Shown piece by piece: positions 1-18,685 of a stretch of DNA of 42,689 nucleotides. The position numbers and the translations under genes were made by a program. Numbering within the stretch: the first letter of the stretch is position 1; every line of letters begins with the position of its first letter. The stretch is from Hyphomicrobiales bacterium (lineage in GTDB: Bacteria > Pseudomonadota > Alphaproteobacteria > Rhizobiales > GCA-2746425): NCBI GenBank assembly GCA_002746425.1, contig NVXB01000001.1:61604-104292 (forward strand), given 5' to 3'. The notes under the pieces were generated by a model, which saw nothing but the letters and a program-made list of their open reading frames with translations, searched no databases and was not told the DNA's origin.

Positions 1-1
1 A

Positions 2-946
2 CCTCGAGATGAAGATGGAAAAGTTATCGAAGGACATCCCATCGCTTGGGAATTGCCTACTTTAACATTCACTGGTAAGGTAAAATTACATGGCACGAAT
101 TCATCCTGGGTTTATAATATTGAAAGTGATAAATTATCTTTCCAATCACGAAATCGTGTTTTAACTGTTGAAAAAGATAATGCTGGATTTGCCCTTTGGT
201 TTTCTTCACAAGAAGAAAAAATCAAAGCATATATGAAAACACTAGCCAATTTAACTGAACGAACTGGTGATATTATTGTGTATGGTGAATGGGCTGGTCC
301 AGGAATTCAAAAAGGAGTTGGAATTTCAGAAATTCCAAGAAAATCATTCTTTATTTTTGAAATTATTTGGAAAGATGGAGATAATATTCTGTATATGGGT
401 AATGGTAAAAATGATTTTAAAGACGTGGATGATACATATTTAATTTTAGATGATTACACTATTACAATTGATTTCAATAAACCTCAACTAGCTCAACAGC
501 AACTCATTGATTTTACTAATCAAGTTGAGGAAGAATGTCCTATTGCTAAGAAATTAGGTGTTATAGGCATCGGCGAAGGAATTGTATGGAGTCATTATAT
601 TGATACTGATACTGTTCTTCGTTTCAAGGTGAAGGGCGAGAAACACAGTGTTTCTAAAGTGAAAACACTTGCTCCTATTGATATTGAAAAATATAATAGA
701 GTCTCAGAGTTTGTTGATAACAACATAACTGAACAGCGTCTTCAACAAGGCATTGATTATCTTAACGAAATGGAACATGAAATTTCTATGAAATCTACAG
801 GCCATTTTGTAAAATGGGTAACCTCTGATGTTTTCACAGAAGAAATGGATACGATTGTTGAGAACCAATTAGATTCTAAAATGATTGGTAAAGAATGTTC
901 TAACCAAGCACGAAAATGGTTTATGGAACAATGTTCAAAAATTTGA
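2..946 (+). CDS. rnlB: RNA ligase 2 (T4 Rnl2-like), 5'-truncated by the window edge
   Basis: The frame is open from nt 2, with no stop upstream of the TTG at 53, so the N-terminus lies outside the window. It has nucleotidyltransferase motif I 'KVKLHGTN' (T4 Rnl2 'KIHGTN') and 'GEWAGPGIQKGV' (T4 'GEFAGPGIQKNV'). Confidence 0.8.
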   Translation, partial: PRDEDGKVIEGHPIAWELPTLTFTGKVKLHGTNSSWVYNIESDKLSFQSRNRVLTVEKDNAGFALWFSSQEEKIKAYMKTLANLTERTGDIIVYGEWAGPGIQKGVGISEIPRKSFFIFEIIWKDGDNILYMGNGKNDFKDVDDTYLILDDYTITIDFNKPQLAQQQLIDFTNQVEEECPIAKKLGVIGIGEGIVWSHYIDTDTVLRFKVKGEKHSVSKVKTLAPIDIEKYNRVSEFVDNNITEQRLQQGIDYLNEMEHEISMKSTGHFVKWVTSDVFTEEMDTIVENQLDSKMIGKECSNQARKWFMEQCSKI

Positions 947-959
947 AAAGGAATATAAA

Positions 960-1424
960 ATGAAAAAATACATTAGTCTAAATGATCTTAAACAGAATAT
1001 TTTTCGAGGTCCATTAACCAATGATTGCATTTTCTATTATGCAATGTTACAAAAAATTACTGAAAATGCAGATGCTACATTAAAGGATTGGCGCGAACTT
1101 TATAATAAACTTTCTAATGAAATCGTTAAATTTAAAAATAAAGGAAGTTCGCCTCAAAACGAACAAATTCTTACATATCTTCAAAAAATTGCAGGTACTA
1201 TGATGCATATTAGAGATATTATTAAAGATAAAACTAGAATTAAAGTGGGCGATTGGATTACTACAAAATATTGGAGTGCATATTACGAAGTAATATTTAT
1301 AAATAGAAAAAACGATTGTGTTGTTATATTATCTGGTCCGCGAGAAATTACTATATCTTTGTCATCCTACATTTGGTATAAAAAAATTACAATAACTACA
1401 GAAAAAAAGGTGAAAGTGACATGA
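960..1424 (+). CDS. hypothetical protein, tandem paralog 1
   Basis: ATG at 960 follows an AAAGGAA RBS, and the longer ORF-track start at 885 overlaps the ligase. The product is paralogous to the next ORF (ISLNDLKQN..GPL..C.FYY..LQ and NEQILTYLQKIAGTMMHIRDII). Confidence 0.6.
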   Translation: MKKYISLNDLKQNIFRGPLTNDCIFYYAMLQKITENADATLKDWRELYNKLSNEIVKFKNKGSSPQNEQILTYLQKIAGTMMHIRDIIKDKTRIKVGDWITTKYWSAYYEVIFINRKNDCVVILSGPREITISLSSYIWYKKITITTEKKVKVT

Positions 1425-1894
1425 AAAATTGTATTAGCATTAATGATTTAAAAATGAATCGATACAACGGCCCATTATCCAGCGAATGTATGTATTTCTA
1501 TGAATGCTTACAGGAACTTTTATTAAATGAATCATCTTCATTATATCATTGGTCATCGGATTATGCAATACTGACCAAAAATATTTTGTCATATAAGAAA
1601 AACCCATCAACCGCAAAGAATGACCAAATTCTTTCTTTTCTTAAGAAAATTGCCACAACAATGATGTATATGCGTGACATTATTTGTGATCGAAATAAAG
1701 CAAAAAATACACCAGTTTCTAATAATATTGGTGCTGGTGATTTTATCACAAAAGTCGGATGGGAGTGTATTTATCTTGTTGAAAGTGTATTTCCCGGTAA
1801 AAATACACTTGTAATTCGAGATCATTTCGGTAATTTAAGTGACCATTGTTATGATGATGAATGGCTTATTGCAGAATTTCGGAGCGCATCATGA
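1421..1894 (+). CDS. hypothetical protein, tandem paralog 2
   Basis: ATGA start/stop overlap with the previous gene. It shares ISINDLKMN..GPL..C.YFY..LQ and NDQILSFLKKIATTMMYMRDII with the 960..1424 product. Confidence 0.6.
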   Translation: MKNCISINDLKMNRYNGPLSSECMYFYECLQELLLNESSSLYHWSSDYAILTKNILSYKKNPSTAKNDQILSFLKKIATTMMYMRDIICDRNKAKNTPVSNNIGAGDFITKVGWECIYLVESVFPGKNTLVIRDHFGNLSDHCYDDEWLIAEFRSAS

Positions 1895-2088
1895 ATAAAC
1901 CTAAAATGAACAACGAAGAGTGGTTAGTAAATGCGTTAAAAAATTTAGAAAATATTTCTTATTATTTGAAACGTAAATTTATTGAAGAAGGGTATGTGTT
2001 AATCCGTGAAATTAAATTAGAATCTCGTGGACGCCCGAGAAAAGAATATTTCCTATCTGAAAAAGGTTTAAATGCAAGTAAAGGATAA
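1891..2088 (+). CDS. small winged-helix DNA-binding protein (PadR/MarR-like)
   Basis: ATG at 1891 follows a GGAG RBS and overlaps the upstream stop (ATGA). The motif 'SRGRPRKEYFLSEKG' is typical of wHTH wing regions. Confidence 0.5.
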   Translation: MNKPKMNNEEWLVNALKNLENISYYLKRKFIEEGYVLIREIKLESRGRPRKEYFLSEKGLNASKG

Positions 2089-2093
2089 ATATA

Positions 2094-2243
2094 ATGGTAG
2101 TGATTACATATTCAAAACCAGGGAAAGAAATAAAAGAAGCACAATTCGACGGTGTAAATGAAGCAGATGAATGGATCGCTTTGTTCAGATTATTCGATAA
2201 TGATTATACATTTGAAAGGAAAGAAAATGCAAAAAGATTATAA
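2094..2243 (+). CDS. small hypothetical protein (49 aa), not in the ORF track
   Basis: Hand translation gives MVVITYSKPGKEIKEAQFDGVNEADEWIALFRLFDNDYTFERKENAKRL*. An AAGGA RBS sits about 9 nt upstream, and the ORF fills an otherwise non-coding gap. Confidence 0.3.
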   Translation: MVVITYSKPGKEIKEAQFDGVNEADEWIALFRLFDNDYTFERKENAKRL

Positions 2244-2412
2244 GTTTATAGCTATATCACGCTCAGATGGTAGATATATTAAAGCTATGAAAAAGAAACA
2301 ATTTGAAAGTTTGTTAAGAAAATCATTAGCAAATAACCCAAACCTTGAGTTTGTAACATATAAGAAATCTAAAGTTGCAACAAGCAAAAAACCAGAAATC
2401 GTATGGGAGTAA
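2227..2412 (+). CDS. hypothetical protein (61 aa) consisting of a module reused in the next gene
   Basis: ATG at 2227 follows a GAAAGGAAAG RBS. The sequence 'KFIAISRSDGRYIKAMKKKQFESLLRKSLANNPNLEFVTYKKSKVATSKKPEIVWE' matches the C-terminus of the 2417..2803 product. Confidence 0.5.
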   Translation: MQKDYKFIAISRSDGRYIKAMKKKQFESLLRKSLANNPNLEFVTYKKSKVATSKKPEIVWE

Positions 2413-2416
2413 TATT

Positions 2417-2803
2417 ATGAATGGACCATTAGTAAATGGCACTAAAGTAATCTGTACAACAAATGAATATCGTTGGTTAGAGAAAGATAAAACATATACT
2501 GTGCGTGGTTATCGAATTTCTAACGGCGGCAATTACAATTATAAAATTTGTGCATCGGAAGGTGCTGTTTTACATTATTGGTGTGGCAACTTTGAACTAG
2601 TTACACCTGTAGTGCCAGAAAAAAATAAGAAATTTACATATATACTTTTATGCGAAAATAGTGTAGTATGTAGAAGCAATGATATGAAAAAAATCGAGAA
2701 ACATATTTCTGATTCTTTAAATTTAAATGCAAATCTTGAATTCGATTTATATAAAAAGAAAAAATCTGCCCGTGGCGAATTGCCAGCAATTATTTGGGAA
2801 TAA
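2417..2803 (+). CDS. hypothetical protein, with a C-terminal module paralogous to 2227..2412
   Basis: The internal ATG at 2417 lies just after the upstream stop. The C-terminus 'FTYILLCENSVVCRSNDMKKIEKHISDSLNLNANLEFDLYKKKKSARGELPAIIWE' matches the previous product. Confidence 0.55.
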   Translation: MNGPLVNGTKVICTTNEYRWLEKDKTYTVRGYRISNGGNYNYKICASEGAVLHYWCGNFELVTPVVPEKNKKFTYILLCENSVVCRSNDMKKIEKHISDSLNLNANLEFDLYKKKKSARGELPAIIWE

Positions 2804-2824
2804 ATATATCATAAAGGAGAAAAT

Positions 2825-2956
2825 ATGAATTTTTTAAAACGATGGCGAAATTATCGCCGAACTGTTAAAGAATTAAGTAATTTAACAGACAAAGATTTAA
2901 ACGACATTGGCATTACACGTGGTGAAATTCATCACATTGCCAAAACTAGTAAATAG
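2825..2956 (+). CDS. DUF1127-like small protein (43 aa), not in the ORF track
   Basis: An AAAGGAGA RBS precedes the ATG at 2825. The translation is MNFLKRWRNYRRTVKELSNLTDKDLNDIGITRGEIHHIAKTSK*. The pattern 'ELs.LtD.eL.DIGI.R.dI' is the hallmark of DUF1127 (YjiS-type) proteins as I recall the family. Confidence 0.65.
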   Translation: MNFLKRWRNYRRTVKELSNLTDKDLNDIGITRGEIHHIAKTSK

Positions 2957-2963
2957 GAGTTGC

Positions 2964-3284
2964 ATGTCAAACAACGAAAATGAATCTGTAAAAGTCCTGC
3001 GGGAATGTATAGACCTTCAAATCAGAAAAGGTCAGGATTATCAAAATCCTAATTCTCAAGTAAAACAAGCGATGTATTATCCTCGCGGGATTTCATCCAT
3101 ACATGATGTAGTAAATGCGAAAAAACTTAGAATTGATTCACTCTTAGAATCGACGGCTAATACTAATTTCGAAAGCTTAGAGGATTCTTATAAAGATTTA
3201 ATCAATTATGCCTCATTTGCTGTCTCATGGTTAAGAGGCGAAATTGATGGTCAGGATAAAACAAAGGACATGTACAATAAATAA
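2964..3284 (+). CDS. DUF1599-like (nucleotide-modification-associated domain 1-like) all-alpha protein
   Basis: ATG at 2964 follows a GGAG RBS. The features 'KGQDYQ', 'VNAKKLRIDSLLES' and 'EDSYKDLINYASFAVSWL' resemble the DYG...K..R...L...NY pattern of DUF1599. The gene sits immediately upstream of the hydroxymethylase. Confidence 0.4.
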   Translation: MSNNENESVKVLRECIDLQIRKGQDYQNPNSQVKQAMYYPRGISSIHDVVNAKKLRIDSLLESTANTNFESLEDSYKDLINYASFAVSWLRGEIDGQDKTKDMYNK

Positions 3285-3294
3285 TGGAGATATT

Positions 3295-4158
3295 ATGAAC
3301 ATTTTAGAAATTAGAAATACGTTACGGGATAAATACGTAGCAAATGATTTCGTAACCGACAAAACAGGCGAAAAAACTATCGAAATCTTAGGAGCATCTT
3401 TCCTAGCAGATGAAGAAGCTATTTTCGGCGAAATCAATAAGGAATATATTAAAGAAGAACTTGAATGGTATCACAGCCTTTCAACTAATATCAATGACAT
3501 TCGAGCTGGCGAACCGCCCGCTGCATGGAAATATGCTGCTGATAAATATGGCAATATCAATTCAAATTATGGTAAGCTTATTTTTACCCCTATTTATTTT
3601 GATCAATATGCCAATGCTATGTATGAGCTACAAATTAATCCAAATTCTAGACGTGCTATTATGATTTATAATCGTCCTTCGATGTGGGAAGAATACAAAG
3701 AAAATGGTAAATCTGATTTTATTTGCACTAATGCAGTATCATTTTACATTCGAGATAATAAAGTTCATTGTGTTGTACAAATGCGCTCAAATGATGTATA
3801 TCTGGGATATAGGAATGATCGTGCGTGGCATTTACATATATTAAAAATGATGGCAAATGATTTAAATTTAGAAGTAGGTGATATTTATTGGCAAGTTCAA
3901 AATCTTCATATCTACGAAAAACATTTTAAATTCATAAAACCTCATACTGAATATGATGCAAAATTAGAAAATTGGGTTTTAGTGGAAACTCCTAACGATT
4001 CATATCTTCTAGGCAATGTTTTTGATGATAAGAAAAATCGCTTTCCTAATGGATATTGCGTCCGAACTACTGATGTAGCATCCACAGATCCGATTGCGAA
4101 AGGTACAATAGTTAGAACTAAAAATAGTTCTTATTTGTTAGGAAATGAAGCGAAATGA
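3295..4158 (+). CDS. gp42: deoxycytidylate 5-hydroxymethyltransferase (T4 gp42-like) with a C-terminal extension
   Basis: ATG at 3295 follows a GGAGA RBS. There is strong collinear similarity to T4 gp42: 'DFVTDKTGEKTIEILGASFLADE', 'ELEWY', 'NPNSRRAIMIYNRPSM', nucleophile context 'DFICTN', and 'MRSNDVYLGYRNDRAW' with Asp at the pyrimidine-specificity position. Confidence 0.85.
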   Translation: MNILEIRNTLRDKYVANDFVTDKTGEKTIEILGASFLADEEAIFGEINKEYIKEELEWYHSLSTNINDIRAGEPPAAWKYAADKYGNINSNYGKLIFTPIYFDQYANAMYELQINPNSRRAIMIYNRPSMWEEYKENGKSDFICTNAVSFYIRDNKVHCVVQMRSNDVYLGYRNDRAWHLHILKMMANDLNLEVGDIYWQVQNLHIYEKHFKFIKPHTEYDAKLENWVLVETPNDSYLLGNVFDDKKNRFPNGYCVRTTDVASTDPIAKGTIVRTKNSSYLLGNEAK

Positions 4159-4601
4159 CACATGATAAGTGGGATATTAGATTTCTGGATTTAGCTAAAC
4201 ATATTTCTCTTTGGAGTAAAGATCCATCAACAAAAATTGGCGCTGTTATTGTAGACGACGAGCGCCATATTCTGTCAACAGGATATAATGGATTCCCTAA
4301 AGGAGTTCGTGATAAACCTCAAAGACTTGAGAATAGAGAAGAGAAATATAAATTTGTAGTTCATGCAGAGATGAATTGTATTTATAATGCATCTTTACAC
4401 GGAATTTCTTTAAAAAATTCGACTTTATACATTCATGGATTACCTGCCTGCCATGAATGCGCTAAAGGTATTATTCAAGCTGGTATTAAAAGAGTTGTGA
4501 TGTCAACTTTAAATGATAACATTTCTGAAAAGTGGGCAGATTCTTATGCTATTTCAGCAACAATGTTTAGAGAAGCTGATGTAAGAATTTCATTCATATA
4601 A
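4155..4601 (+). CDS. cd: dCMP deaminase
   Basis: It has the zinc-binding cytidine/deoxycytidylate deaminase motifs 'HAEMN' and 'PCHECAKGIIQAGIKRVV'. ATGA overlap with the upstream gene. Confidence 0.9.
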   Translation: MTHDKWDIRFLDLAKHISLWSKDPSTKIGAVIVDDERHILSTGYNGFPKGVRDKPQRLENREEKYKFVVHAEMNCIYNASLHGISLKNSTLYIHGLPACHECAKGIIQAGIKRVVMSTLNDNISEKWADSYAISATMFREADVRISFI

Positions 4602-4611
4602 GGAGAAAGCT

Positions 4612-4773
4612 ATGGGTTGTTGGTCAATGAGAGAATATGAGGATAAAGATGCAAATGGGAAGTGTGATGAGTGCGAATCATTAACTGTTGATGGTGAGGC
4701 TATTGAGATATGTACCTATTCACCAGTACTATGTGAAAAATGTGGCTGGAGTCCATGTGACAATTCTTGTTAA
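4612..4773 (+). CDS. small Cys-rich protein (53 aa, putative zinc ribbon), not in the ORF track
   Basis: An AGGAG RBS at 4601-4605 precedes the ATG at 4612. The translation is MGCWSMREYEDKDANGKCDECESLTVDGEAIEICTYSPVLCEKCGWSPCDNSC*, with CxxC pairs. Confidence 0.5.
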   Translation: MGCWSMREYEDKDANGKCDECESLTVDGEAIEICTYSPVLCEKCGWSPCDNSC

Positions 4774-4778
4774 AATAA

Positions 4779-4808
4779 GTGTACACTCGCTGGAATTTTG
4801 ATTATATT
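4779..4808 (+). promoter_or_regulatory. putative promoter, GTGTACA-N17-TATATT class
   Basis: It has GTGTACA (4779-4785), a 17-nt spacer and TATATT (4803-4808). The same architecture recurs at 12163-12192 and 26556-26585, each time just after an upstream stop codon. Confidence 0.45.
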
Positions 4809-4830
4809 AAATTTAGAAAATGGAGATATT

Positions 4831-5445
4831 ATGAAACAATGGTTAGTAATTTACCTTAATGGAAAATTAAAACTTTCTTATGTAGGAATTTATAATGATA
4901 ATAAATCATTAGAAAATTCGTGTTCTATGAAAACTAACATCAGTAGAGCTAAATATTGTCATAAAAAAATGATTGAAACTCCTAATGGAAACAATAGTGG
5001 TCTTAAATCTGGTTTTATGATGGCCTTAATTAATACAAATTATGGAGGGTGGGATTATACTATTTTACCAGAACCATTAGAAAATGCTTTCGCTGCTGCT
5101 GAATTTAAAGCAGAAATGATAGAGATTTTAAAGGGTTTTGGATATACATTTGTTGGTTCTGATCGATTCTTTGTTAAAGGTTCTATTAAAGAATTTGGCG
5201 GAAATGCTTCTTGGACTAAAAAATGGAATATCGAAGCAATGACTCAAGCAAAAATCAGAGAAAAAATCGAATTTATAGTGAAATCCATGCCAGATAATGT
5301 GCCAAATCGCATATATTCTGAAGCTTATATGTGTACAATCATACCAGATGGTGTTAAGATAAGAACTAATTATGGTGATTATCAAATCAATGATTTAGTA
5401 TCACTATATAAATTTGTTCGAAACTATATGGGGTATGACTTATGA
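4831..5445 (+). CDS. hypothetical protein
   Basis: ATG at 4831 follows a GGAGA RBS. Long ORF with no recognised motif. Confidence 0.6.
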   Translation: MKQWLVIYLNGKLKLSYVGIYNDNKSLENSCSMKTNISRAKYCHKKMIETPNGNNSGLKSGFMMALINTNYGGWDYTILPEPLENAFAAAEFKAEMIEILKGFGYTFVGSDRFFVKGSIKEFGGNASWTKKWNIEAMTQAKIREKIEFIVKSMPDNVPNRIYSEAYMCTIIPDGVKIRTNYGDYQINDLVSLYKFVRNYMGYDL

Positions 5446-5774
5446 AAATCGGCGACACTATTAAATCACCAACGAGCGCCATATTCACCGTTGAACATAC
5501 ATTTATTAAAAATAACCTTCTTTACGCAGTGTATTTTCACAATAGTCTCGGCATGCAAATTAATTCAATAGAGTATTTGAATAGCAACGGTTGGTTTAAA
5601 ATTCATAAAAAATATCATGTTTTGATATGTGTATATAAAAATGGTGTCACGGAATTACGCGCATATGCGCCACCAAAAAATTGTTTAATATTTAAATCTG
5701 TTACAATGACAGAACAGGAAATATACGATTTTGATAAAGAAGCTGATATAGATAAGTTTGTAGAATGTTCATAA
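5442..5774 (+). CDS. hypothetical protein
   Basis: ATGA overlap with the upstream gene. No recognised motif. Confidence 0.55.
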   Translation: MKIGDTIKSPTSAIFTVEHTFIKNNLLYAVYFHNSLGMQINSIEYLNSNGWFKIHKKYHVLICVYKNGVTELRAYAPPKNCLIFKSVTMTEQEIYDFDKEADIDKFVECS

Positions 5775-5822
5775 TTATTGGTATGATTTTATTATATTTT
5801 TCATTAACAGTTAAGGAGTAGC

Positions 5823-8800
5823 ATGGACTTTTATACATTTTTTCAAAGATATAAATCTGATTTATTAATTTCTGGATATGAGAATGGGAAAAAGGTCAAT
5901 AAAGTTGTACCCCTAAAACCATATTTGTTTGCACCATCCAATAAGGGTGGCATATTTTCTTCTATGGAAGGAGAAAAAGTTAAAAAAATTGACTTTACTA
6001 ACACATGGGAAGCCTCAAAATTCATTAAAGAATATGAGGATATTGAAAATTTTAACATTTATGGCTCTACATATTATGATTATGTACATATAAATGATGC
6101 TTTTCCTATTATAAAAAATGATAATACTAAATTACGTATCGGCAATTATGATATTGAAACAGATTCTGAGGGTGGTTTTGCTGACCTAGAAACTGCTAAT
6201 AAAGAAATCACATCAATTTCATTAGGAGTTATGCATAAAAGAGATATTTATCTCCTGGGTGTAAAGGATTATGATCCAGAAAAATCCGAAATTCTTAAAA
6301 AAGAAATTCCTCATAAAAAAGTCAAATACATTAAATGTGAAAATGAAAAAGAACTTTTAGAGAAATTTATTGAAATTTGGGTGAAACTTAAATTTGATTG
6401 TATTTCTGGATGGTTTATTAATGGGTATGATAATCTATATACCATCAGGCGCATTAGACGCATCCTGGGTGATTCTTATGCTAATAAATTATCACCCTAT
6501 GGCATGATTAAAGAACATAGCTACGAAAAATATGGTAAAACTAAAGAACAATACGAAATTGTAGGAATTCCTACGATCGATTATATTGAGGCATATGCTA
6601 AATTTTCTTTCAAAAATGTTGAATCCTACAAATTAGATTACATTTCTCATCTAGAACTTGATAAGAAAAAATTAGATTATTCTAAATATAAGACATTAGC
6701 GAGATTGTATAAAGAAAATCCTGCGCTTTTCTATGACTATAATATTATTGATATTGTACGTGTCGAAGAATTAGAACATAAATTGAAATTTATTGATCTA
6801 ATGTTTTCTCTTGCATACTTCACTAAAACAAATGTTTTAGATGGTTTTGCCACAGTTAAGCCCTGTGACGTGGTTATTCATAATACTCTTATGAAGAAAA
6901 ACATTGTAGTACCACATAATAAAAAATCAGAACAAAGCTATAGACAAATCGCGGGCGGATATGTAAAACACCCTAAACCAGGGTTTTACAAATATTTAAT
7001 GAGTTTTGATCTCACAAGCCTATATCCATTTTTAATCATGTGTTTCAACATTTCACCCGACGTTTATATCGGTAAAATGGATCAATATGATAATTTGGGT
7101 ACTGCAGATCAAATTATCCATGACAATATATTCGATCATTTGAGAGAAAAATTAGTAAAAGAAAACGTGTGCATAACACCAAAAGGTACTATATTTTCAA
7201 GAGAAAAGCAAGGCGTTTTTGCTGAAATTATGGAAGAGGGTTTCAATCTCAGAAAATCACAAAAAGATGAAATGCTTAAGTATAAGAAACTCAAGGAAAG
7301 TGCTCAGGGCTCTGATAAAGATAAATGGGCAGCACTTGCCACTGAGTATGGTAACAGACAATTAGCCACCAAAATTTTCTTAAATGCATTTTATGGCGGG
7401 CTTGCAAATCCATATTCCAGGTGGTTTAATTATGACATCGCCGAATCTATTACGATGTCAGGGCAATTGGTGACAAAATATATTGAAAATGAGATGAATA
7501 CCTATTTCAATAAAATTCTTAAAACTAAAGATATAGACTATATCATCACGTCGGATACAGACAGTGTCGCTGGAGATTCATTAATATATGTAAACGATAA
7601 GAAAATAAAAATAGAAGATTATTATAATTCTTTAGAAAATAATTTTATTTTAAATGATACATTTAATGAGAATTATGTTAAAGAAGTTAGTGGCGACACT
7701 ACGAAATGTTATATTGAAGGTATAAAAAACAAAAAAATAAATTATATCATGAAACATAAAGTTTCTAAAAAAATGTATAGAATTAAATGCAACGGCAATT
7801 TTGTAGATGTTACAGAAGATCATTCTGTTATCGTAAAAAATAAAAAAACTAAAAAAATAAGTAGCATAAAACCTAAAAATCTTAATCCTAACCTACATTC
7901 TATTATAAATATCAAAACTAAAAAAATAGACGAATTAATAACAGATGATTTTGAAGTAGAATATTTAGGAATAATTGAAAATTATGTTTATGATATAGAA
8001 GTTGAAGAAGCTCATAATTTTTTTGCTAATGATATTTTAGTTCATAATTCCTGCTATATTAATGCTACTACTTTAATTGAAAAAGTATTTCCAGATGATT
8101 CTGGTTCGCAGGAAGAAATTACCAATTTTCTTGAAAATTTTGCTAAAGAAGTTGAAAGCAAAGCTATTGATGTAGCATTAGCAAAATTATACAAAGCAAC
8201 TAATATATATAAACCAAACCTTCATATGAAACTTGAAGCTATTGGACAAGGTGTTTGGCGAGCTACCAAAAATTATATTATGTCAGTGTGGAGCATGGAA
8301 GGTGTTAGATATAAAATTCCTGAAATTAAAATGCAGGGAATTGAGGCTGTAAAATCATCTACTCCTGAAATATGTAGAAATTATATCAAGGATTCACTAA
8401 AATTTATTGTGTCCCAGGACAGAAAAGGTCTAGTAGAACATATAAATAAATGTGAAGCAGAATTTTACGATATGCCATTTCATAAAGTAGCACTACCAAG
8501 AGGTGTCACTGAAATTGATAAATGGGTAGATGGTGATGGTAATTATGCTAAAGGAATACCATATCATGTTAGAGCTGCGTTAAATTATAACAAATTACTC
8601 AAAAAGAAAAACATGCAAAAAGAACATTTATTTATTGGACCTGGAGATAAGATGAGATTATCATATCTCACTATGCCAAATCCAACCAGACAGAATATTT
8701 TTGCGTGCCCTGATGAGCTTCCAGAAGAATTTGGTTTAGAGGAATACGTGGATTATCCTAAACAGTTCGAAAAAAGTTTTATGAAACCTATTACGAGCCT

Positions 8801-8861
8801 AGCTAATGCTGCTGGAATTAGTATGGATAACAAAGTAGAAATGGATCAATTTGAGGAATAA
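5823..8861 (+). CDS. gp43: family-B DNA polymerase (T4 gp43-like), intein-containing precursor
   Basis: AAGGAG RBS upstream. It has the Exo I motif 'YDIETD', 'SLYP' (motif A region), 'KIFLNAFYG' (motif B) and a 'DTDS' motif C interrupted by an insertion of about 162 aa. Confidence 0.9.
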   Translation: MDFYTFFQRYKSDLLISGYENGKKVNKVVPLKPYLFAPSNKGGIFSSMEGEKVKKIDFTNTWEASKFIKEYEDIENFNIYGSTYYDYVHINDAFPIIKNDNTKLRIGNYDIETDSEGGFADLETANKEITSISLGVMHKRDIYLLGVKDYDPEKSEILKKEIPHKKVKYIKCENEKELLEKFIEIWVKLKFDCISGWFINGYDNLYTIRRIRRILGDSYANKLSPYGMIKEHSYEKYGKTKEQYEIVGIPTIDYIEAYAKFSFKNVESYKLDYISHLELDKKKLDYSKYKTLARLYKENPALFYDYNIIDIVRVEELEHKLKFIDLMFSLAYFTKTNVLDGFATVKPCDVVIHNTLMKKNIVVPHNKKSEQSYRQIAGGYVKHPKPGFYKYLMSFDLTSLYPFLIMCFNISPDVYIGKMDQYDNLGTADQIIHDNIFDHLREKLVKENVCITPKGTIFSREKQGVFAEIMEEGFNLRKSQKDEMLKYKKLKESAQGSDKDKWAALATEYGNRQLATKIFLNAFYGGLANPYSRWFNYDIAESITMSGQLVTKYIENEMNTYFNKILKTKDIDYIITSDTDSVAGDSLIYVNDKKIKIEDYYNSLENNFILNDTFNENYVKEVSGDTTKCYIEGIKNKKINYIMKHKVSKKMYRIKCNGNFVDVTEDHSVIVKNKKTKKISSIKPKNLNPNLHSIINIKTKKIDELITDDFEVEYLGIIENYVYDIEVEEAHNFFANDILVHNSCYINATTLIEKVFPDDSGSQEEITNFLENFAKEVESKAIDVALAKLYKATNIYKPNLHMKLEAIGQGVWRATKNYIMSVWSMEGVRYKIPEIKMQGIEAVKSSTPEICRNYIKDSLKFIVSQDRKGLVEHINKCEAEFYDMPFHKVALPRGVTEIDKWVDGDGNYAKGIPYHVRAALNYNKLLKKKNMQKEHLFIGPGDKMRLSYLTMPNPTRQNIFACPDELPEEFGLEEYVDYPKQFEKSFMKPITSLANAAGISMDNKVEMDQFEE
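7563..8048 (+). mobile_element. mini-intein (162 aa) in polymerase motif C
   Basis: The sequence reads ..SDTD|SVAGDSLIYV...VTEDHSVIV...VYDIEVEEAHNFFANDILVHN|SCYINA.. It has blocks A (Ser1), B (TxxH), F and G (HN followed by Ser+1). Excision restores SDTDSCY, compared with T4 GDTDSVY. Confidence 0.8.
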
Positions 8862-8863
8862 AT

Positions 8864-9088
8864 ATGAAAATTACTAATGAAGAAGATTTTGGTTTTTTCC
8901 ACGAAACACAGGAATCAATAAAAAAAGATAATAGAGCAGAAAAACTCTACGAAGAGATTATTCCCTTTTTAAATAAGCTTAAGGGAAATGAGGGCACTGA
9001 TACAATTAATTGGCCAAGTGAACAAAGAATAGAACAAATTGATAAATTTATTACAAAATTAGAAGGAATTTTAAATGAGTCTCATTAA
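8864..9088 (+). CDS. hypothetical protein (74 aa)
   Basis: The ORF lies directly after the polymerase stop. No motif recognised. Confidence 0.5.
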   Translation: MKITNEEDFGFFHETQESIKKDNRAEKLYEEIIPFLNKLKGNEGTDTINWPSEQRIEQIDKFITKLEGILNESH

Positions 9089-10145
9089 CGAATTATTAAA
9101 AGCAACAAGTTTAGACCATGCAGGTATTTTAAGCGAGTCAGAAATTTATAATACCAGAGAATTTTATCCAACCGCAATTCCAATGATGAATGTGGCGCTA
9201 TCAGCAGATCCAATGGGCGGTGTCTCGTCGGGACTTACTGCATGGTGCGGCCCTTCGAGACATTTTAAATCTCTCTTTTGCTTAATTTCAGCGAAAGCAT
9301 ATTTAGATGCCCATGAAGATGGAATTTTAATTTTCTTTGATTCTGAATTTGGCACACCGCCTTCATATTTTGAAGCTGCGGGTATTGATCCTAAACGAGT
9401 TCTACATGTTCCTATTACAACATATGAAGATCTTAAATTCGATATTGCTAAAAAATTAGATATGATTAAACGAGGAGACAAGGTTTTTATTATCATCGAT
9501 TCTTTGGGTAATTTAGCCTCTAAGAAAGAAGCTGCCGATGCTTTAAAAGAAAATTCTGCCGCAGATATGACACGCGCGAAGGAAAATAAATCATTATTTC
9601 GTATTGTTACACCACATTTGCGCTTGAAAAATATTTCTATGCACGTTGTTCAACATACCTACGATACTATGGAAATGTATTCCAGAAAAGTTGTTTCTGG
9701 TGGACAGGGCACTCTCTTATCAGCTGATAATGTATTCATTCTAGGTCGTCAACAAGATAAAGATGGAACAGAATTAAATGGTTATAACTTTATCATCAAC
9801 GTGGAAAAATCCAGGTATGTTAAAGAAAAATCTAAAATACCTATTACAGTCGGTTTTGCAGGTGGCATTAAAAGATGGTCTGGACTTTTGGATTTAGCTG
9901 TAGATGCAGGAATGGTAGCGAAAATTTCGACACAATCTTATAATAAAATTGATCTTGAGACAGGTGAACTTATAGAAGATGTGAAATATAAAAGAAAAGA
10001 AATTGAATATGATTCAAAACTCTGGCTAGAAATGCTAGCAGAACCTAAATTTGTTGATTTTATTAAGAACAAATATGCTGTAGCCCATGGCAAGCTTCTC
10101 GAAGATGACGAAGAATTTCCAGAAATAGATGTACAGGATGAATAA
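9075..10145 (+). CDS. uvsX: UvsX recombinase (RecA-like)
   Basis: Collinear with T4 UvsX: 'IPMMNVALS', 'GPSRHFKS' (Walker A-like), 'FDSEFG', 'IDSLGNLASKKE', 'DMTRAKENKSLFRIVTP' and 'NVEKSRYVKEKSK'. Confidence 0.9.
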   Translation: MSLINELLKATSLDHAGILSESEIYNTREFYPTAIPMMNVALSADPMGGVSSGLTAWCGPSRHFKSLFCLISAKAYLDAHEDGILIFFDSEFGTPPSYFEAAGIDPKRVLHVPITTYEDLKFDIAKKLDMIKRGDKVFIIIDSLGNLASKKEAADALKENSAADMTRAKENKSLFRIVTPHLRLKNISMHVVQHTYDTMEMYSRKVVSGGQGTLLSADNVFILGRQQDKDGTELNGYNFIINVEKSRYVKEKSKIPITVGFAGGIKRWSGLLDLAVDAGMVAKISTQSYNKIDLETGELIEDVKYKRKEIEYDSKLWLEMLAEPKFVDFIKNKYAVAHGKLLEDDEEFPEIDVQDE

Positions 10146-10177
10146 ATCAGTATATAAATAAATTTTTAGGAGTATAA

Positions 10178-11512
10178 GTGCTAGAAAACAAGATTTTATC
10201 ACAATTATTAACCGATGATATATATTTAAGAAAAGTAATTATTCATTTAGATACTGATTACTTTGAAAATGCAAACGAGCAAATAGTCTGTAAATTAATT
10301 ACAGACTATTTTCAAAAATATAATAAAGCTCCAACTAAAAGTATTCTCGAAACAGAAATTGAAAGTAGAGAATTACCTGAAAATATTTATGACAGTTCCA
10401 TTTTATTGGTTAAAAACCTTAAAGATGAGGTACATGATAATGAATGGCTTATAGATAAAACAGAAGAATTTTGTAAAGAACGAGCTTTAAATAATGCGCT
10501 TTTTAAATCAGTAGAGTTATCTGAAAGCGATGAAAAAAACAAAATACCTGAAATTCTATCCAAGGCATTGGGTATTTCATTTGATAATGATCTTGGCCAT
10601 GATTATATTAAAGATGCTGAAAAGCGATTTAAATTCTATAACACTGAGCACAATAAAATACCCTTCGATATTGATTTATTGAATAAAATTACTAAAAACG
10701 GTGTTACTAGAAAAACATTCAACTGTTTAATGGCTCCTACTGGTAAAGGTAAATCGTTAGCCCTTTGTCATATGGCAGCAGCTTATCGTTCCAGCGGCTA
10801 TAATGTATTGTATATTAGTCATGAAATGAGTGAGGAATGGATTTCTAGACGAATTGACGCTAATTATTTCGACATTGATATCAATGATGTTGAGGACATG
10901 GAATATGATAAATTCATGGCTCAGATTAAGATACAGGATAGAAAAAGTGCTGGTGTACTGAAAGTAAAAGAATATCCTACTGGTACTGCTCATGTTGGAC
11001 ATATAAGACATTTAATATCTGAATATAAAATGAAAGAGAATTTCGTTCCAGATGTTATCATTATTGATTATATTAACATCATGTGTAGCTATAAAATGAA
11101 AAATAAAGGCGATTCGTATGGTTATATTAAATCAATTGCTGAAGAAGTAAGAGGATTATTTGTTGAGCTAGATGTAGTTGGATGGAGTGCTACACAAGTA
11201 AATAGGGAAGGTGTGAAAGCATCTGATTTTGATATGGGTGAAACATCTGAATCGATGGGTTTGGTTCATACTCTGGATTTATTTTTAGGTATGATGGCAA
11301 CCGAAGAATTAGAAGCTATGGGTCTGGTGAAATTTAAGCAATTAAAAAATCGTTACGGGGCTCTGGACTATTATTCATCCTTCGTTGTTGGTATTGATAA
11401 GCCTAAAATGAGATTATTTGATGCTGACGATCAAGGTTCTATTACCAAAGAGCCTAACGATTCTGGTCATAAGCAAAACAGGAAAGATAAATTGAATTCC
11501 TTAATGTCATAA
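10178..11512 (+). CDS. gp41: replicative DNA helicase (T4 gp41 / DnaB-like)
   Basis: GTG start 5 nt after an AGGAG RBS. The N-terminus aligns with T4 gp41 (ILSQLL..D..Y..KV). It has the Walker A motif 'APTGKGKS' and DnaB-like C-terminal motifs. Confidence 0.85.
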   Translation: MLENKILSQLLTDDIYLRKVIIHLDTDYFENANEQIVCKLITDYFQKYNKAPTKSILETEIESRELPENIYDSSILLVKNLKDEVHDNEWLIDKTEEFCKERALNNALFKSVELSESDEKNKIPEILSKALGISFDNDLGHDYIKDAEKRFKFYNTEHNKIPFDIDLLNKITKNGVTRKTFNCLMAPTGKGKSLALCHMAAAYRSSGYNVLYISHEMSEEWISRRIDANYFDIDINDVEDMEYDKFMAQIKIQDRKSAGVLKVKEYPTGTAHVGHIRHLISEYKMKENFVPDVIIIDYINIMCSYKMKNKGDSYGYIKSIAEEVRGLFVELDVVGWSATQVNREGVKASDFDMGETSESMGLVHTLDLFLGMMATEELEAMGLVKFKQLKNRYGALDYYSSFVVGIDKPKMRLFDADDQGSITKEPNDSGHKQNRKDKLNSLMS

Positions 11513-11532
11513 ATACTTATAAAGGAAAGAAA

Positions 11533-11880
11533 ATGTTTATAAGTATCGTGTCGTTTTTTCTCGGCAATAGAAAAATGATTATGTATGGTGCAATAGCTCT
11601 TTTTATAGCTGTAACTTTTTTGAAATTCATTTCATTAATTGAAGAAAATGCTAAAAAAGATTTTGTGCTTGAGACTCAGAAAATTTCATTAGAAGAAAAA
11701 GATAAGGCAATAACCATATTAAAGGATACCATTCAATTAAATGATGATATTCTCACTAAACGCGATGGAGAAATAAAACTTTTAGAAGAAGAATTATTCG
11801 ATGTAACAAATAATTTAGGCACAGATTCTACAGATGAAGCTGCCGAATCATTAAAGGAAATTTTTAGGAGATTGAAATGA
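11533..11880 (+). CDS. putative i-spanin (N-terminal TM helix plus coiled coil)
   Basis: It has the TM segment 'IMYGAIALFIAVTFLKFISLI' followed by a charged coiled-coil region. It is immediately followed, with an ATGA overlap, by a lipoprotein gene. Confidence 0.45.
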   Translation: MFISIVSFFLGNRKMIMYGAIALFIAVTFLKFISLIEENAKKDFVLETQKISLEEKDKAITILKDTIQLNDDILTKRDGEIKLLEEELFDVTNNLGTDSTDEAAESLKEIFRRLK

Positions 11881-12158
11881 AGTGGGTAATTATATTAGGT
11901 GTATTTTTAAGTCTAAACGCATGTAGCGATACATTAATAGCGATTAAAAGCGAAACAAACTCAGTGATTGTTACGCCCCCAAATAATTTATACAACTGTC
12001 CTCAACTTAGACGTATACCAAATCCTGAGACTCTTACAAACCAACAGGTAGCAGATACTATTGGTAAACTTTATAAATACAATAAAATTTGCAAGATTAA
12101 TATGAATAATATTAAAAAATTCGTTAATGAAGCTAAAATTTTAAATAAAAATTCATAA
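11877..12158 (+). CDS. putative o-spanin (small outer-membrane lipoprotein)
   Basis: It has a signal peptide with the lipobox 'LSLNAC', is a small Pro/Cys-containing protein, and is paired with an upstream type-II membrane protein. Confidence 0.45.
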   Translation: MKWVIILGVFLSLNACSDTLIAIKSETNSVIVTPPNNLYNCPQLRRIPNPETLTNQQVADTIGKLYKYNKICKINMNNIKKFVNEAKILNKNS

Positions 12159-12162
12159 TTTA

Positions 12163-12192
12163 GTGTACATTTTGTATTGATTTGGTTATTAT
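12163..12192 (+). promoter_or_regulatory. putative promoter, GTGTACA-N17-TATTAT class
   Basis: It has GTGTACA (12163-12169), a 17-nt spacer and TATTAT (12187-12192), in the 120-nt gap upstream of the phosphoesterase genes. Confidence 0.4.
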
Positions 12193-12278
12193 AAAATAGA
12201 GAAAATTTTAAAGTTAAGGATAATATTATGAATAGTAATTTGAATACATATCAACTTACAGAAATTGGAAAGTAGAGA

Positions 12279-12866
12279 ATGAGATATATCGGCGATATTC
12301 ATGGTGATTTTAAGTATTATCAGAAGGTTACTAGCACCTGTGAAAAATCTATTCAAGTAGGTGATTTTGGAATTGGATTTGTGAAAAACCCAATCTATGA
12401 TTATGATGTAAATAACCATAGATTTATTCGCGGCAATCATGATTATCCTGAAGGATGCTATAAAGAACCCAATTTCATTCCAGACGGTACCATTGAAGGT
12501 GATACGATGTTCATGGGCGGCGCAATGTCTATAGACATTCCTCATAGAACTGAAGGTGTAGATTGGTGGAGAGATGAAGAATGTTCTTATTCTGAACTTT
12601 CTAGACTTTATGAAAAATATGTTAAGCATAAACCTAAAATAGTAGTAACTCATGATTGTCCAGAATTTGTTTCTACTATTATGTGTAATGAAGTTAATTT
12701 TGTAAAATTTGATCTTAAATCTATAACTAGAAATGCTTATCAAAATATGTGGGAAGAACATAAACCTGATTTGTGGATATTTGGGCATTGGCATTTAGAT
12801 TTCAGGAAAGAAATTTTTGGTACTGAATTTGTGTGCGTTAATTGTTTAAAATATTTGGATATTTAG
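12279..12866 (+). CDS. metallophosphoesterase (PPP/calcineurin-like)
   Basis: Motifs present: 'GDIHG', 'VGDFG', 'RGNHD', 'VTHDCP' and 'GHWH'. Confidence 0.75.
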   Translation: MRYIGDIHGDFKYYQKVTSTCEKSIQVGDFGIGFVKNPIYDYDVNNHRFIRGNHDYPEGCYKEPNFIPDGTIEGDTMFMGGAMSIDIPHRTEGVDWWRDEECSYSELSRLYEKYVKHKPKIVVTHDCPEFVSTIMCNEVNFVKFDLKSITRNAYQNMWEEHKPDLWIFGHWHLDFRKEIFGTEFVCVNCLKYLDI

Positions 12867-12867
12867 T

Positions 12868-13368
12868 ATGAGAGATATATGGGTAATATCAGATACACAT
12901 TTTAATCATACAAACATATTAAATTTTACTGATGATTTTGGTGATAAAGTGCGTAAATTTGATAATGTAAATCAAATGAATGACTGTATGATCACTAATT
13001 GGAATGAAGTAGTTAAAGAAACTGATATCATCTATCATTTAGGCGATGTGTATTTCGGCAATTCTCACGAAACAGATGAAATTTTAAAGAAATTAAATGG
13101 TAAAAAGAGACTTATATTAGGTAATCATGATAATGGTAAAGATCAAATATTGTATAAACATTTTGCTAAAATAACTCTCTGGCGATTATTTAAAGAACAT
13201 AACATGGTTTTAACACATATACCTTTACATGAAAGTAATATGCAAAAAGTTGAATATAACGTACATGGACACATACACCAAAACATTTCGCCAACGCCAA
13301 ATCATATTAATGTATGTGTTGAACAAATTAATTATAAACCAATTCATATAGAAAGTATAATCAAATGA
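12868..13368 (+). CDS. metallophosphoesterase (second, distinct)
   Basis: Motifs present: 'SDTHFNH', 'LGDV', 'GNHD', 'THIPLH' and 'HGHIH'. Confidence 0.75.
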   Translation: MRDIWVISDTHFNHTNILNFTDDFGDKVRKFDNVNQMNDCMITNWNEVVKETDIIYHLGDVYFGNSHETDEILKKLNGKKRLILGNHDNGKDQILYKHFAKITLWRLFKEHNMVLTHIPLHESNMQKVEYNVHGHIHQNISPTPNHINVCVEQINYKPIHIESIIK

Positions 13369-13547
13369 GAAAAATAGATTTTTCTGACATATTAGTGATT
13401 TTATCAATAAGCTTTTTTAGTATCACTTTAGTTGTTGCTTTTCCTAATCCAGTTGTTTATTTAATTGCACTTGGCTTCTTTTGCTTTTTATTGGTTTTTG
13501 TTTTTGCAACTCCTGCTAAATTAGAAGTTGCTCATGACGGATATTAA
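13365..13547 (+). CDS. small membrane protein (2 predicted TM helices)
   Basis: It has the hydrophobic stretches 'ILVILSISFFSITLVVAF' and 'VVYLIALGFFCFLLVFVFA'. ATGA overlap with the upstream gene. Confidence 0.5.
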   Translation: MRKIDFSDILVILSISFFSITLVVAFPNPVVYLIALGFFCFLLVFVFATPAKLEVAHDGY

Positions 13548-13812
13548 AAAACAACCACCTGCAATATGCGGTTATGCACCAGGTGGCTATTCAACGAAAT
13601 GCCGTAAATGTAAAATTACAATGGATTTTGTCGATAAACGATCTCATGAATGTATAAATTGTGCGATAGATAGTGCAAACGAGAATATGAATATTTCAGA
13701 TGATAAAATCAAAAATTTAACTCTAATGATAGAAATATTACAAAGAGAAAATTTAAATTTGAAAGTTAAACTTAATTTAACGAATAATGATAAACCGGAA
13801 TGGAAAATATAA
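13534..13812 (+). CDS. zinc-ribbon plus coiled-coil protein, tandem paralog 1
   Basis: ATG at 13534 (the ORF track uses the TTG at 13528). Signature: 'PPAICGYAPGGYSTKCRKCKITMDFVDKRSHECINCAIDSANE'. Confidence 0.55.
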   Translation: MTDIKKQPPAICGYAPGGYSTKCRKCKITMDFVDKRSHECINCAIDSANENMNISDDKIKNLTLMIEILQRENLNLKVKLNLTNNDKPEWKI

Positions 13813-14096
13813 TGTCATTCGATATTGATAATTTTGAACATTTACCACCGAGGTTGTGTGGTTATGCACCAGGCGTTAATATGAAAACGTGCCCTAAATG
13901 CAAAAAAGTAACACATGGTGTCGATAAACACTCATATGAGTGCTTAAATTGTGCAATAAAAACAGCTAATGAGGGTATTAAAGAATTAGGAAATAAAAAT
14001 GAAGAGCAGCATTATGAAATTCTAAAACTCAAAAAGAAAAATAAGAGAATGAAGAAAATGCTTAATTTTTTTTATGGACCAATAACATGTTCATAG
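13812..14096 (+). CDS. zinc-ribbon plus coiled-coil protein, tandem paralog 2
   Basis: ATG at 13812 overlaps the upstream TAA (TAATG). Signature: 'PPRLCGYAPGVNMKTCPKCKKVTHGVDKHSYECLNCAIKTANE'. Confidence 0.55.
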   Translation: MSFDIDNFEHLPPRLCGYAPGVNMKTCPKCKKVTHGVDKHSYECLNCAIKTANEGIKELGNKNEEQHYEILKLKKKNKRMKKMLNFFYGPITCS

Positions 14097-14371
14097 AAGA
14101 AGCTAGTAAGAAAATCTTAGAGAGTTATATAGCTATTTTAAAAAGAAAGAACATTAAGGCTATTTGTAATACTGAAAATCCTTTAAGTTTAGAACATGTA
14201 TATTGGATGTGCTGTGAATGCAATAAATCTATTGATGTTAAAAATAAAAAGAATGCTTGGTCTGTAGATAAATACTCAAGATGGATTGGTTTTATTCAAG
14301 CTGCATTAGTAATGCATAAAATTACTACTGTAGATGAGGAAAGAGATAAAACTAGAGAATGGTTAAAATGA
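14087..14371 (+). CDS. hypothetical protein
   Basis: ORF with normal codon usage. The C-terminal 'SRWIGFIQAALVMHKITTVDEERDKTREW' motif was not confidently assigned. Confidence 0.5.
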   Translation: MFIEEASKKILESYIAILKRKNIKAICNTENPLSLEHVYWMCCECNKSIDVKNKKNAWSVDKYSRWIGFIQAALVMHKITTVDEERDKTREWLK

Positions 14372-14420
14372 ATTGGCATTTTTAATCATTATTATTAATA
14401 GAGAAATTAAAGGATAAAAA

Positions 14421-14759
14421 ATGAAATATATTATTTTAATAATGAGTTTAATGTTTGTGAATGCAGCAAATGCAAAATGTTCAGGTTTAACTACAGAAGA
14501 ATTTTTAAATAAATCACCTGAATTTGAAATAGCTGCGATAGTAACAGATGATGATTATTTAAGATTTGATGATGTACAAAATTATTTATATGTAAATAGT
14601 ATGGATGAGAGTATACTTCTCGTCGATAAAATTATTTTACATAATGCAAGATATAATATAAGTCTGTACACTATGTCTATGCATAAAAATGGTTGTGCTA
14701 TTAATTATGTTTTAATTGATGAAGATGTTTGGGTTTATTTTCTCCAGAAATTAAAGTAA
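14421..14759 (+). CDS. secreted hypothetical protein
   Basis: AAAGGA RBS upstream. N-terminal signal peptide 'MKYIILIMSLMFVNAANA|K'. Confidence 0.55.
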   Translation: MKYIILIMSLMFVNAANAKCSGLTTEEFLNKSPEFEIAAIVTDDDYLRFDDVQNYLYVNSMDESILLVDKIILHNARYNISLYTMSMHKNGCAINYVLIDEDVWVYFLQKLK

Positions 14760-14794
14760 AAAAAGAGCGGGGATAAACCCGCTCAGTTTGTTTT
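14757..14794. terminator. bidirectional rho-independent terminator
   Basis: It has the stem GAGCGGG (14765-14771), a GATAAA loop and CCCGCTC (14778-14784). It is flanked by an A-run on the left (a T-run on the - strand) and TTTGTTTT on the right. It lies between convergent genes. Confidence 0.75.
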
Positions 14795-14809
14795 AAAATA
14801 TTATTCTTA

Positions 14810-16102: not shown

Positions 16103-16126
16103 TGTTATGACTCCTTATTTTATTTT

Positions 16127-16134
16127 TATTTATA
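16127..16134 (-). promoter_or_regulatory. T4-type late promoter TATAAATA upstream of gp23
   Basis: The - strand reads TATAAATA 25 nt upstream of the gp23 ATG, in the 36-nt gp22-gp23 gap and followed by an AAGGAG RBS. Confidence 0.65.
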
Positions 16135-16138
16135 AATT

Positions 16139-17014: not shown

Positions 17015-17044
17015 TATTTTCTCCTAGTATTTCAATTTTTTATT

Positions 17045-17052
17045 TATTTATA
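17045..17052 (-). promoter_or_regulatory. T4-type late promoter TATAAATA upstream of gp22
   Basis: The - strand reads TATAAATA 31 nt upstream of the gp22 ATG, in the intergenic gap and followed by an AGGAG RBS. Confidence 0.6.
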
Positions 17053-17054
17053 AT

Positions 17055-18427: not shown

Positions 18428-18436
18428 AGCTAGACC

Positions 18437-18652: not shown

Positions 18653-18685
18653 TTTTAATCTCCTATTTTATAATTATTTATTAAA

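Follow-up and report, generated by a model that had tools for sequence, protein, structure and literature searches.

The stretch of DNA analysed here (the window) comprises 42,689 nucleotides of contig NVXB01000001.1 (positions 61,604–104,292) of the Hyphomicrobiales bacterium assembly GCA_002746425.1 and carries a T4 gp43-type family-B DNA polymerase gene with an in-frame insert of 486 nt. The insert corresponds to 162 codons (polymerase residues 581–742), and lies between DTD and SCY of polymerase motif C. It very probably specifies a class-1 mini-intein of the PolB1 family, contiguous and without an endonuclease, that is placed between Asp580 and the DTDS serine (Table 1). At the 5' border, GAC (Asp580) ends at position 7562 and AGT (Ser1) occupies positions 7563–7565; at the 3' end, CAT AAT (His-Asn, 8043–8048) is followed by TCC (Ser+1, 8049–8051). 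Reading and translating the DNA put these borders, to the base, where the original prediction of a Ser1/Ser+1 mini-intein at 7563–8048 had placed them. No direct repeats are visible at the two insert junctions, and the two Ser codons differ (AGT versus TCC).

Table 1. Features of the polymerase gene and its insert, with positions in the window
Feature	Position	Strand	Basis or remark
Precursor open reading frame (ORF), T4 gp43-type family-B DNA polymerase, 1012 aa + stop	5823..8861	+	ORF list, Pfam, RB69/T4 gp43 matches
N-extein, 580 aa, ending ...DYIITSDTD	5823..7562	+	exonuclease domain, motifs A and B, both motif C catalytic Asp
Predicted contiguous class-1 mini-intein, PolB1 family, 162 aa (Ser1...His161-Asn162), without endonuclease domain	7563..8048	+	9hth, AlphaFold2, Foldseek, Pfam PF14890
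Block A / motif N1 (SVAGDSLIY) with Ser1 nucleophile (AGT, 7563–7565)	7563..7589	+	S1 invariant, G4 nearly invariant in the alignment of 28 relatives (A1)
K64-H65, 'NX' motif (Lys/Arg-His)	7752..7757	+	M63 and H65 invariant in A1; context ...NYIMKHKV...
Block B / motif N3, T84-E-D-H87	7812..7823	+	T84, D86 and H87 invariant in A1
Loop KTKKIDELITDD, residues 117–128	7911..7946	+	split position in relatives with free-standing endonuclease gene
Blocks F and G, YVYDIEVEEAHNFFANDILVHN, including D144, H151, penultimate H161 and terminal N162	7983..8048	+	conserved across relatives
Ser+1 (TCC), C-extein residue 1, Ser of the DTDS motif	8049..8051	+	
C-extein, 270 aa + stop	8049..8861	+	rest of palm domain and thumb

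With the insert deleted, the polymerase reads ...IITSDTDSCYINATT... across the junction (in a longer stretch, ...DYIITSDTDSCYINATT...), and the SDTDSCY form of motif C is restored as had been proposed. Pfam matched DNA_pol_B_exo1 and DNA_pol_B on the polymerase. The spliced 850-aa polymerase aligned with RB69 gp43 (E=5e-105) without a gap in motif C (window 'iitsdtdscyina', RB69 gp43 'vlygdtdsiyvsa') and with T4 gp43 (E=1e-101), the motif of which is GDTDSVY, as originally quoted.

Searched against PDB chains with phmmer, the insert matched 9hth_A over residues 2–162 (E=1.3e-29) and, more weakly, the DnaX, RadA, DnaB, PolB16, CDC21 and NrdJ-1 inteins; PI-PkoII was another weak PDB match. An AlphaFold2 model of the insert, computed from alignment A1 of 28 sequences, had a mean pLDDT of 95.3 and a pTM of 0.88. 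Its best Foldseek match was 9HTH (TM 0.93, rmsd 1.4 Å, 40% identity), in which the cysteine-less Aes123 PolB1 split intein was crystallised in fused form (PMC11923092), and 50 of the 50 listed PDB matches were intein or Hint-type domains. The Hint fold anticipated for this segment was thereby found.

The insert combines the Hint fold with Ser1, the TxxH of block B (T84–H87), block F, a His-Asn end (H161-N162) and Ser+1 at an in-frame conserved site, as class-1 inteins do, and all of these splicing blocks had been recognised in the original prediction. Block A takes the form S-V-x-G-D-S/T in relatives, and S1, H65, T84, D86 and H87 are invariant across the 28 aligned relatives. Block F is YVYDIEVEEAHNFFA and block G is NDILVHN with H161-N162; this F/G segment is near-identical to the C-terminal intein parts (IntC) of Aes516, CC_R7 and two metagenomic contigs (L003, L006) described below. 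K64-H65, upstream of block B, fits a cysteine-independent intein. This NX motif, in which Lys or Arg comes before a conserved His, was described by Pasch et al. as a signature of Ser1, cysteine-independent inteins and has been mutationally tested in other Ser1 inteins (PMC10189870). The two cysteines of the intein, C49 and C76, lie outside the conserved splicing blocks. The DTD/S insertion point (the slash marks the junction) in a gp43-type PolB and the full-length similarity to characterised members place the insert in the PolB1 family.

All 162 aa are covered by the splicing fold of the fused split intein, and no LAGLIDADG or HNH domain was matched in the insert by Pfam at E<=1, so that it does not classify as a maxi-intein and the earlier statement that there is no room for an endonuclease holds. 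Overlapping ORFs within the insert are limited to two short antisense ones (57 and 31 aa). Pfam and PHROGs searches of the flanking ORFs revealed no endonuclease inside the polymerase gene or next to it, and neither strand of the insert showed a sizeable ORF. A naturally split intein was rejected for the window copy, which lies in one uninterrupted 1012-aa ORF and in whose neighbouring ORFs no nuclease families were found. Bacterial intein-like (BIL) domains occur in variable, non-conserved protein regions, usually lack a +1 nucleophile and cleave instead of ligating. This assignment was also rejected: the insert occupies the motif of highest conservation in the polymerase and is followed by Ser+1, and BIL2 structures matched far more weakly (E 0.02–0.03, TM 0.62–0.63).

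The site is empty in homologous polymerases. An insert-free DTDS-x-Y was present in 13 polymerases aligned with MAFFT, including the closest ones (P0023–P0025, 863–882 aa, 51–57% identical over the exteins), which were drawn from a collection of 5.8 billion proteins, and ten more distant ones. The nearest polymerase in a phage genome by tblastn was that of Rhizobium phage RHph_I1_18 (41.6%); at the DNA level, positions 1–20000 of the window had no more than a 47-nt megablast match among 50,697 phage records. Most listed tblastn matches in phage genomes spanned 82–84% of the precursor in two pieces, as expected if the intein (16% of the precursor) is absent from the matched polymerases.

Contiguous, split and tandem relatives

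The window element is not new in kind; it joins the already characterised PolB1 family of cysteine-independent inteins as a new, contiguous member. Aes123 PolB1 is a characterised cysteine-less split intein that splices in vitro, with its native flanks DTD and SVY kept in the constructs (PMC11923092), and the CP21 PolB1 split intein has also been characterised (PMC12707363); the engineered CL and CLm inteins belong to the Aes123 PolB1 system. The window intein is ~40–45% identical to Aes123 PolB1 and resembles it in the gp43-type PolB host, the flanks DTD and S-x-Y, Ser1/Ser+1 and blocks A, NX, B, F and G, and translations of Aes516 and CC_R7 have the same junctions as the window (TSDTD/S...HN/SCY). 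The Aes inteins are split, with an N-terminal part (IntN) and an IntC of ~39 aa on separate ORFs and usually a VSR-like or GIY-YIG gene between them, whereas the window copy is one 162-aa domain in a single ORF with loop 117–128 in place of the split. The window polymerase is only ~33% identical to the Aes phage polymerase.

An exhaustive phmmer search with the insert against 1.84 billion cluster representatives gave 742 matches at E<=1e-3, 244 of them at E<=1e-10. Top matches with an aligned N-terminus included 50 contiguous mini-inteins with DTD/S...HN/S junctions, 77 IntN fragments ending at about query position 107–123, and 10 proteins with two intein domains. These ten had at first been classed as inteins with a large insert; on inspection, each holds two intein domains and none is endonuclease-containing. 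A word-indexed protein search with the intein gave 21 matches, of which all inspected ones were IntN fragments; the split-only family that this search alone suggested was overturned by the exhaustive search. In GenBank phages, tblastn with the insert matched polymerase genes only. Carriers were the Aeromonas salmonicida T4-like phages Aes508, Aes123, Aes516, AS-gz and others, annotated as 'intein-containing split DNA polymerase precursor', the Campylobacter phages CP21, F379, CJLB-13 and CC_R7, and Vibrio phage VPALA. A scan of IMG/VR with the intein gave 150 pattern matches, none of which was confirmed by tblastn.

The DNA polymerase of Campylobacter phage CC_R7 holds a contiguous 153-aa mini-intein, 43% identical to that of the window and likewise without an endonuclease. 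It differs from the window copy in phage lineage and host, has a shorter loop and lacks the 'KNKKTK...NPNLHSIINI' signature, which the window intein has in common with the metagenomic relatives P0142–P0145, P0150 and P0001. In the GenBank record of CC_R7 (PQ092953.1, L001), the 1035-aa product XLL17512.1 (1141–4248) is labelled 'DNA polymerase' and the intein at 3001–3459 (NDTD/SVVGDS...ILVHN/SCY) is unannotated.

The PolB1 family comprises contiguous mini-inteins and, more often, split inteins parted by a free-standing Vsr-like endonuclease gene. The nearest relatives found for the window copy over residues 1–115 are split: its identity is 60% with the IntN fragments P0144 and P0145 and 56% with the best contiguous relative, P0142. 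The sub-family signature KxKKTx-I..IKP..LN...H.IINI is common to the window intein and its split and contiguous relatives. The split point of the relatives falls at loop 117–128 of the window copy, as IntN fragments diverge past '...IINI' and the alignment with the Aes516 IntC starts at 'FE[VI]E'. Confidence in the structural model is reduced only around this loop (blocks 111–120 and 121–130 average pLDDT 87 and 79, respectively). On the contigs of two close split relatives (L003, L006), an IntN ORF is followed by a Vsr-like ORF and then by an ORF that opens with IntC (...VYDIEVE..HNFFANDI.VHN/S.Y) and continues into the C-extein. The intervening ORFs encode 315 and 343 aa, are mutually homologous (E=4e-38) and have weak DUF559/MTES_1575 (Vsr-like) matches.

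This layout matches the fractured-gene arrangement of Dassa et al. (2009), who reported split inteins with Vsr-like endonucleases and proposed that an endonuclease-free contiguous intein comes first and is then invaded by a free-standing endonuclease gene (PMC2677866). Unlike the fractured-gene inteins, the window copy has neither an interruption nor an adjoining endonuclease ORF, nor any trace of one in the loop. It may represent step I of that model, a mini-intein before invasion, or a re-fused derivative.

A short tail containing DT[DE], often DTDS or DTDT, follows directly after the split point ('...IINI..DTDS..') in 19 of the 77 IntN fragments (among P0144–P0290, for example P0144, P0145, P0150, P0167, P0200 and P0268), where 2.3 are expected by shuffling (maximum of 8 in 2000 shuffles). 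These tails echo the extein DTDS, and a duplicated extein target was considered; a simpler possibility is that they are the counterpart of the acidic TDD/FDD/SDD-F loop in contiguous relatives. On metagenomic contigs of split relatives, polymerase genes are broken up further; for example, the 936-aa N-terminal polymerase ORF of L003 (945–3755) has a faint LAGLIDADG match, and the gene of L004 (2507–5633) is distributed over ORFs of 717, 121 and 210 aa. Being in more pieces than the PolB1 split explains, they suggest several mobile insertions per gene.

A second, metagenomic group of Ser1 inteins, likewise in motif C of family-B polymerases but with junctions YGD/S...HN/TDS (P0266, P0276, P0254, P0264 and P0274), is related to the window intein at E<=1e-14; it differs from it in a site two residues upstream (D/TDS, not DTD/S) and in having Thr as the +1 residue. 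The YGD/TDS junction resembles the 'pol-c' intein site of archaea (Tli Pol-2, PI-PkoII). Archaeal pol-c examples carry LAGLIDADG endonuclease domains. In the metagenomic family-B polymerases P0218, P0239, P0275 and P0286, as well as the partial P0230 and P0284, two related Ser1 mini-inteins are present in tandem in motif C. The layout is YGD/intein-1 (S...HN)/TD/intein-2 (S...HN)/S-x-Y, with two extein residues between the inteins and both the D/TDS and the DTD/S sites filled; in the window polymerase, only the second site (DTD/S) is occupied.

Base composition and mobility

The insert has a G+C content of 21.2%, compared with 31.2% in the exteins and a window mean of 31.8% (sd 3.3), and its third-position G+C content is 11.7% compared with 23.8%. 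A G+C content this low is reached by only 0.11% of 486-nt windows, and the minimum of the whole stretch (7578–8063) overlaps the insert. Lys (14.2% versus 11.5% in the exteins), Asn (12.3% versus 5.9%) and Ile (13.0% versus 8.7%) are enriched, in keeping with the Lys- and AT-rich character that the original prediction had noticed. Five of the 21 A7 runs of the window lie in the intein (7724–7926), a density of 10.3 per kb versus 0.49 per kb. Such runs are potential sites of transcriptional or translational slippage; programmed slippage was considered and set aside, as an A content of 46% versus 34% by itself predicts a roughly 8-fold excess.

In full-length polymerases with a related intein, the exteins are 24–33% and the inteins 39–52% identical to those of the window. 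The patchy distribution, this incongruence between intein and extein and the anomalous G+C content are consistent with past horizontal movement. Horizontal acquisition of the window intein is possible and would agree both with its being the lowest-GC segment and with the far greater divergence of the host polymerases of related inteins. Repeated loss from an ancient insertion could also have contributed to the empty site in the nearest polymerases and to the incongruence. Because it carries no nuclease, the intein cannot home by itself. The original description as 'probably non-mobile' is therefore borne out as regards the missing nuclease, in or next to the gene, and less so as regards history, where patchiness, incongruence and G+C content are consistent with horizontal movement, which in relatives is associated with free-standing Vsr-like endonuclease genes.

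Putative splicing pathway and competing explanations

The pathway that we infer from the conserved residues and the biochemistry of homologues is the standard class-1 route with oxyester intermediates, and its chemistry would be thiol-free because both nucleophiles are serine. The precursor (computed mass 117.8 kDa) would fold first, and Ser1 would undergo an N-to-O acyl shift at the Asp580-Ser1 (DTD/S) bond with help from T84 and H87 of block B and K64-H65 of the NX motif. The resulting oxyester would be attacked by Ser+1 in a trans-esterification, giving a branched intermediate, from which cyclisation of Asn162, assisted by H161, would free the 18.9-kDa intein. An O-to-N shift would then form a native peptide bond and yield a 98.9-kDa polymerase with an intact SDTDSCY motif; the predicted masses of both products match the earlier estimates of ~98 and ~19 kDa. 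The DTD aspartates of family-B polymerases bind catalytic metals, and because of this the precursor should be inactive until splicing has occurred and replication of the phage should be splicing-dependent. We regard this deduction as sound; it should hold unless another polymerase gene lies outside the window.

Several points count against this interpretation or parts of it. Pfam Intein_splicing (PF14890) scored 35.8 bits on the insert alone, exactly the gathering cut-off, fell below it in the whole protein (26.9 bits) and covers residues 52–162 only, so that an intein call from Pfam taken alone would be marginal. Splicing is shown for the homologues Aes123 PolB1 and CP21 PolB1 and is predicted for the window copy. 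The window covers 42.7 kb of genome, and a second, uninterrupted polymerase gene is possible elsewhere (the longest contig on record for the protein has 186 kb). The low G+C content could reflect relaxed constraint under AT mutation pressure instead of foreign origin. Lastly, evolution may have run in either direction, with the contiguous form being ancestral or having been re-fused after endonuclease loss.

Going beyond the identification as an intein, one may propose that the element is both kept for a benefit to the phage, as a replication gate through conditional splicing at the catalytic centre or as an 'immunity' allele, and the ancestral pre-fracture state of the split PolB1 inteins; we consider this combination unlikely. 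If the 'immunity' part were true, the insert would destroy the DTDS-coding target of Vsr-like homing endonucleases from related co-infecting phages, and if the pre-fracture part were true, split PolB1 inteins would have arisen repeatedly through endonuclease invasion of loop 117–128.

Among the explanations that compete with a splicing intein, a degenerate relic, in which the Hint fold is kept and splicing is lost while a further gene beyond the window supplies the polymerase or the phage itself is defective, seems very improbable. Only part of the genome is covered by the window, and the very low G+C content and the clustered A7 runs of the insert can be read as relaxed constraint; however, S1, H65, T84, D86, H87, blocks F and G, H161-N162 and S+1 are all intact, the frame is open across 162 codons despite 79% A+T, and the model is confidently folded. 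An unspliced insert would moreover set the DTD carboxylates apart from the remaining palm domain in a polymerase that belongs to a replication module.

Splicing might also be gated by temperature, salt, pH or folding state, which would make the intein a post-translational switch on phage DNA replication. Conditional splicing is documented for some replication and repair inteins, the position in the catalytic centre would turn splicing into an all-or-none activity switch, and the Aes123 PolB1 homologue is only ~30% spliced in vitro as its N fragment aggregates (PMC11923092). The sequence nevertheless indicates no sensor and, with C49 and C76 outside the splicing blocks, no catalytic Cys through which redox gating could work, and a catalytic-site position is typical of inteins and explained by homing-site conservation; such a switch is hardly to be expected here.

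A last alternative, that the insert is an ordinary loop or domain particular to this lineage and stays in the mature polymerase, has a practically negligible probability: family-B polymerases do tolerate insertions and the Pfam support only reaches the threshold, yet a crystallised intein is matched from end to end, the site lies inside the metal-binding aspartate motif and is flanked by S1 and HN/S+1, and the segment is absent from the closest homologues, contrary to what a conserved loop would require, and present in very distant ones.

Significance and neighbouring genes

Most known copies of this intein family are split, and the predicted mini-intein is a contiguous addition to it; that its nearest relatives found are split fits the published model of a mini-intein that is later invaded by an endonuclease. 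Only a few efficient cysteine-less split inteins are reported to exist, and thiol-free Ser1/Ser+1 inteins are sought-after tools in protein engineering, for which a naturally contiguous phage relative could serve as a cis-splicing scaffold or as a source of an orthogonal split pair. The current understanding of inteins is unchanged by this copy, which will be unsurprising to specialists and of some interest to protein engineers. In annotation, the gene should read intein-containing polymerase precursor, which the GenBank entry of its CC_R7 homologue does not.

The neighbours of the polymerase gene encode RNA ligase, thymidylate synthase, dCMP deaminase, UvsX and a gp41-type helicase, a T4-type replication module, and further on come T4-like myovirus structural genes (major head protein, portal, sheath, terminase, baseplate wedge). 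The phage lineage is distantly T4-like, with 31.9% G+C. Two adjacent ORFs of 195 and 166 aa (12279–12866 and 12868–13368, +) both match Metallophos and Metallophos_2 (calcineurin-like metallophosphoesterase); these could be paralogues in tandem or the two parts of a single gp47/Mre11-like nuclease gene. A 514-aa ORF (21912–23456, +) lies between the opposite-strand genes for a tail-tube-like protein (20574–21122, -) and the tail sheath (23453–25462, -). It matches the PHROGs 'homing endonuclease' (phrog_3339, E=1.7e-87) and 'HNH endonuclease' (phrog_559), whereas Pfam gave no domain at E<=0.01. This could be a mobile nuclease gene that stands on its own; alternatively, the name of the PHROG family could be unreliable. 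Genes for tRNA-Gly(TCC) and tRNA-Met(CAT) were found by both ARAGORN and Rfam between tail sheath and terminase (25876–25950 and 26274–26350, +). Upstream of the baseplate wedge genes, an ORF of 1904 aa (34463–40177, -) has matches solely among PHROGs of unknown function (phrog_358, 1075 bits), and its product is presumably a large virion or baseplate-associated protein.

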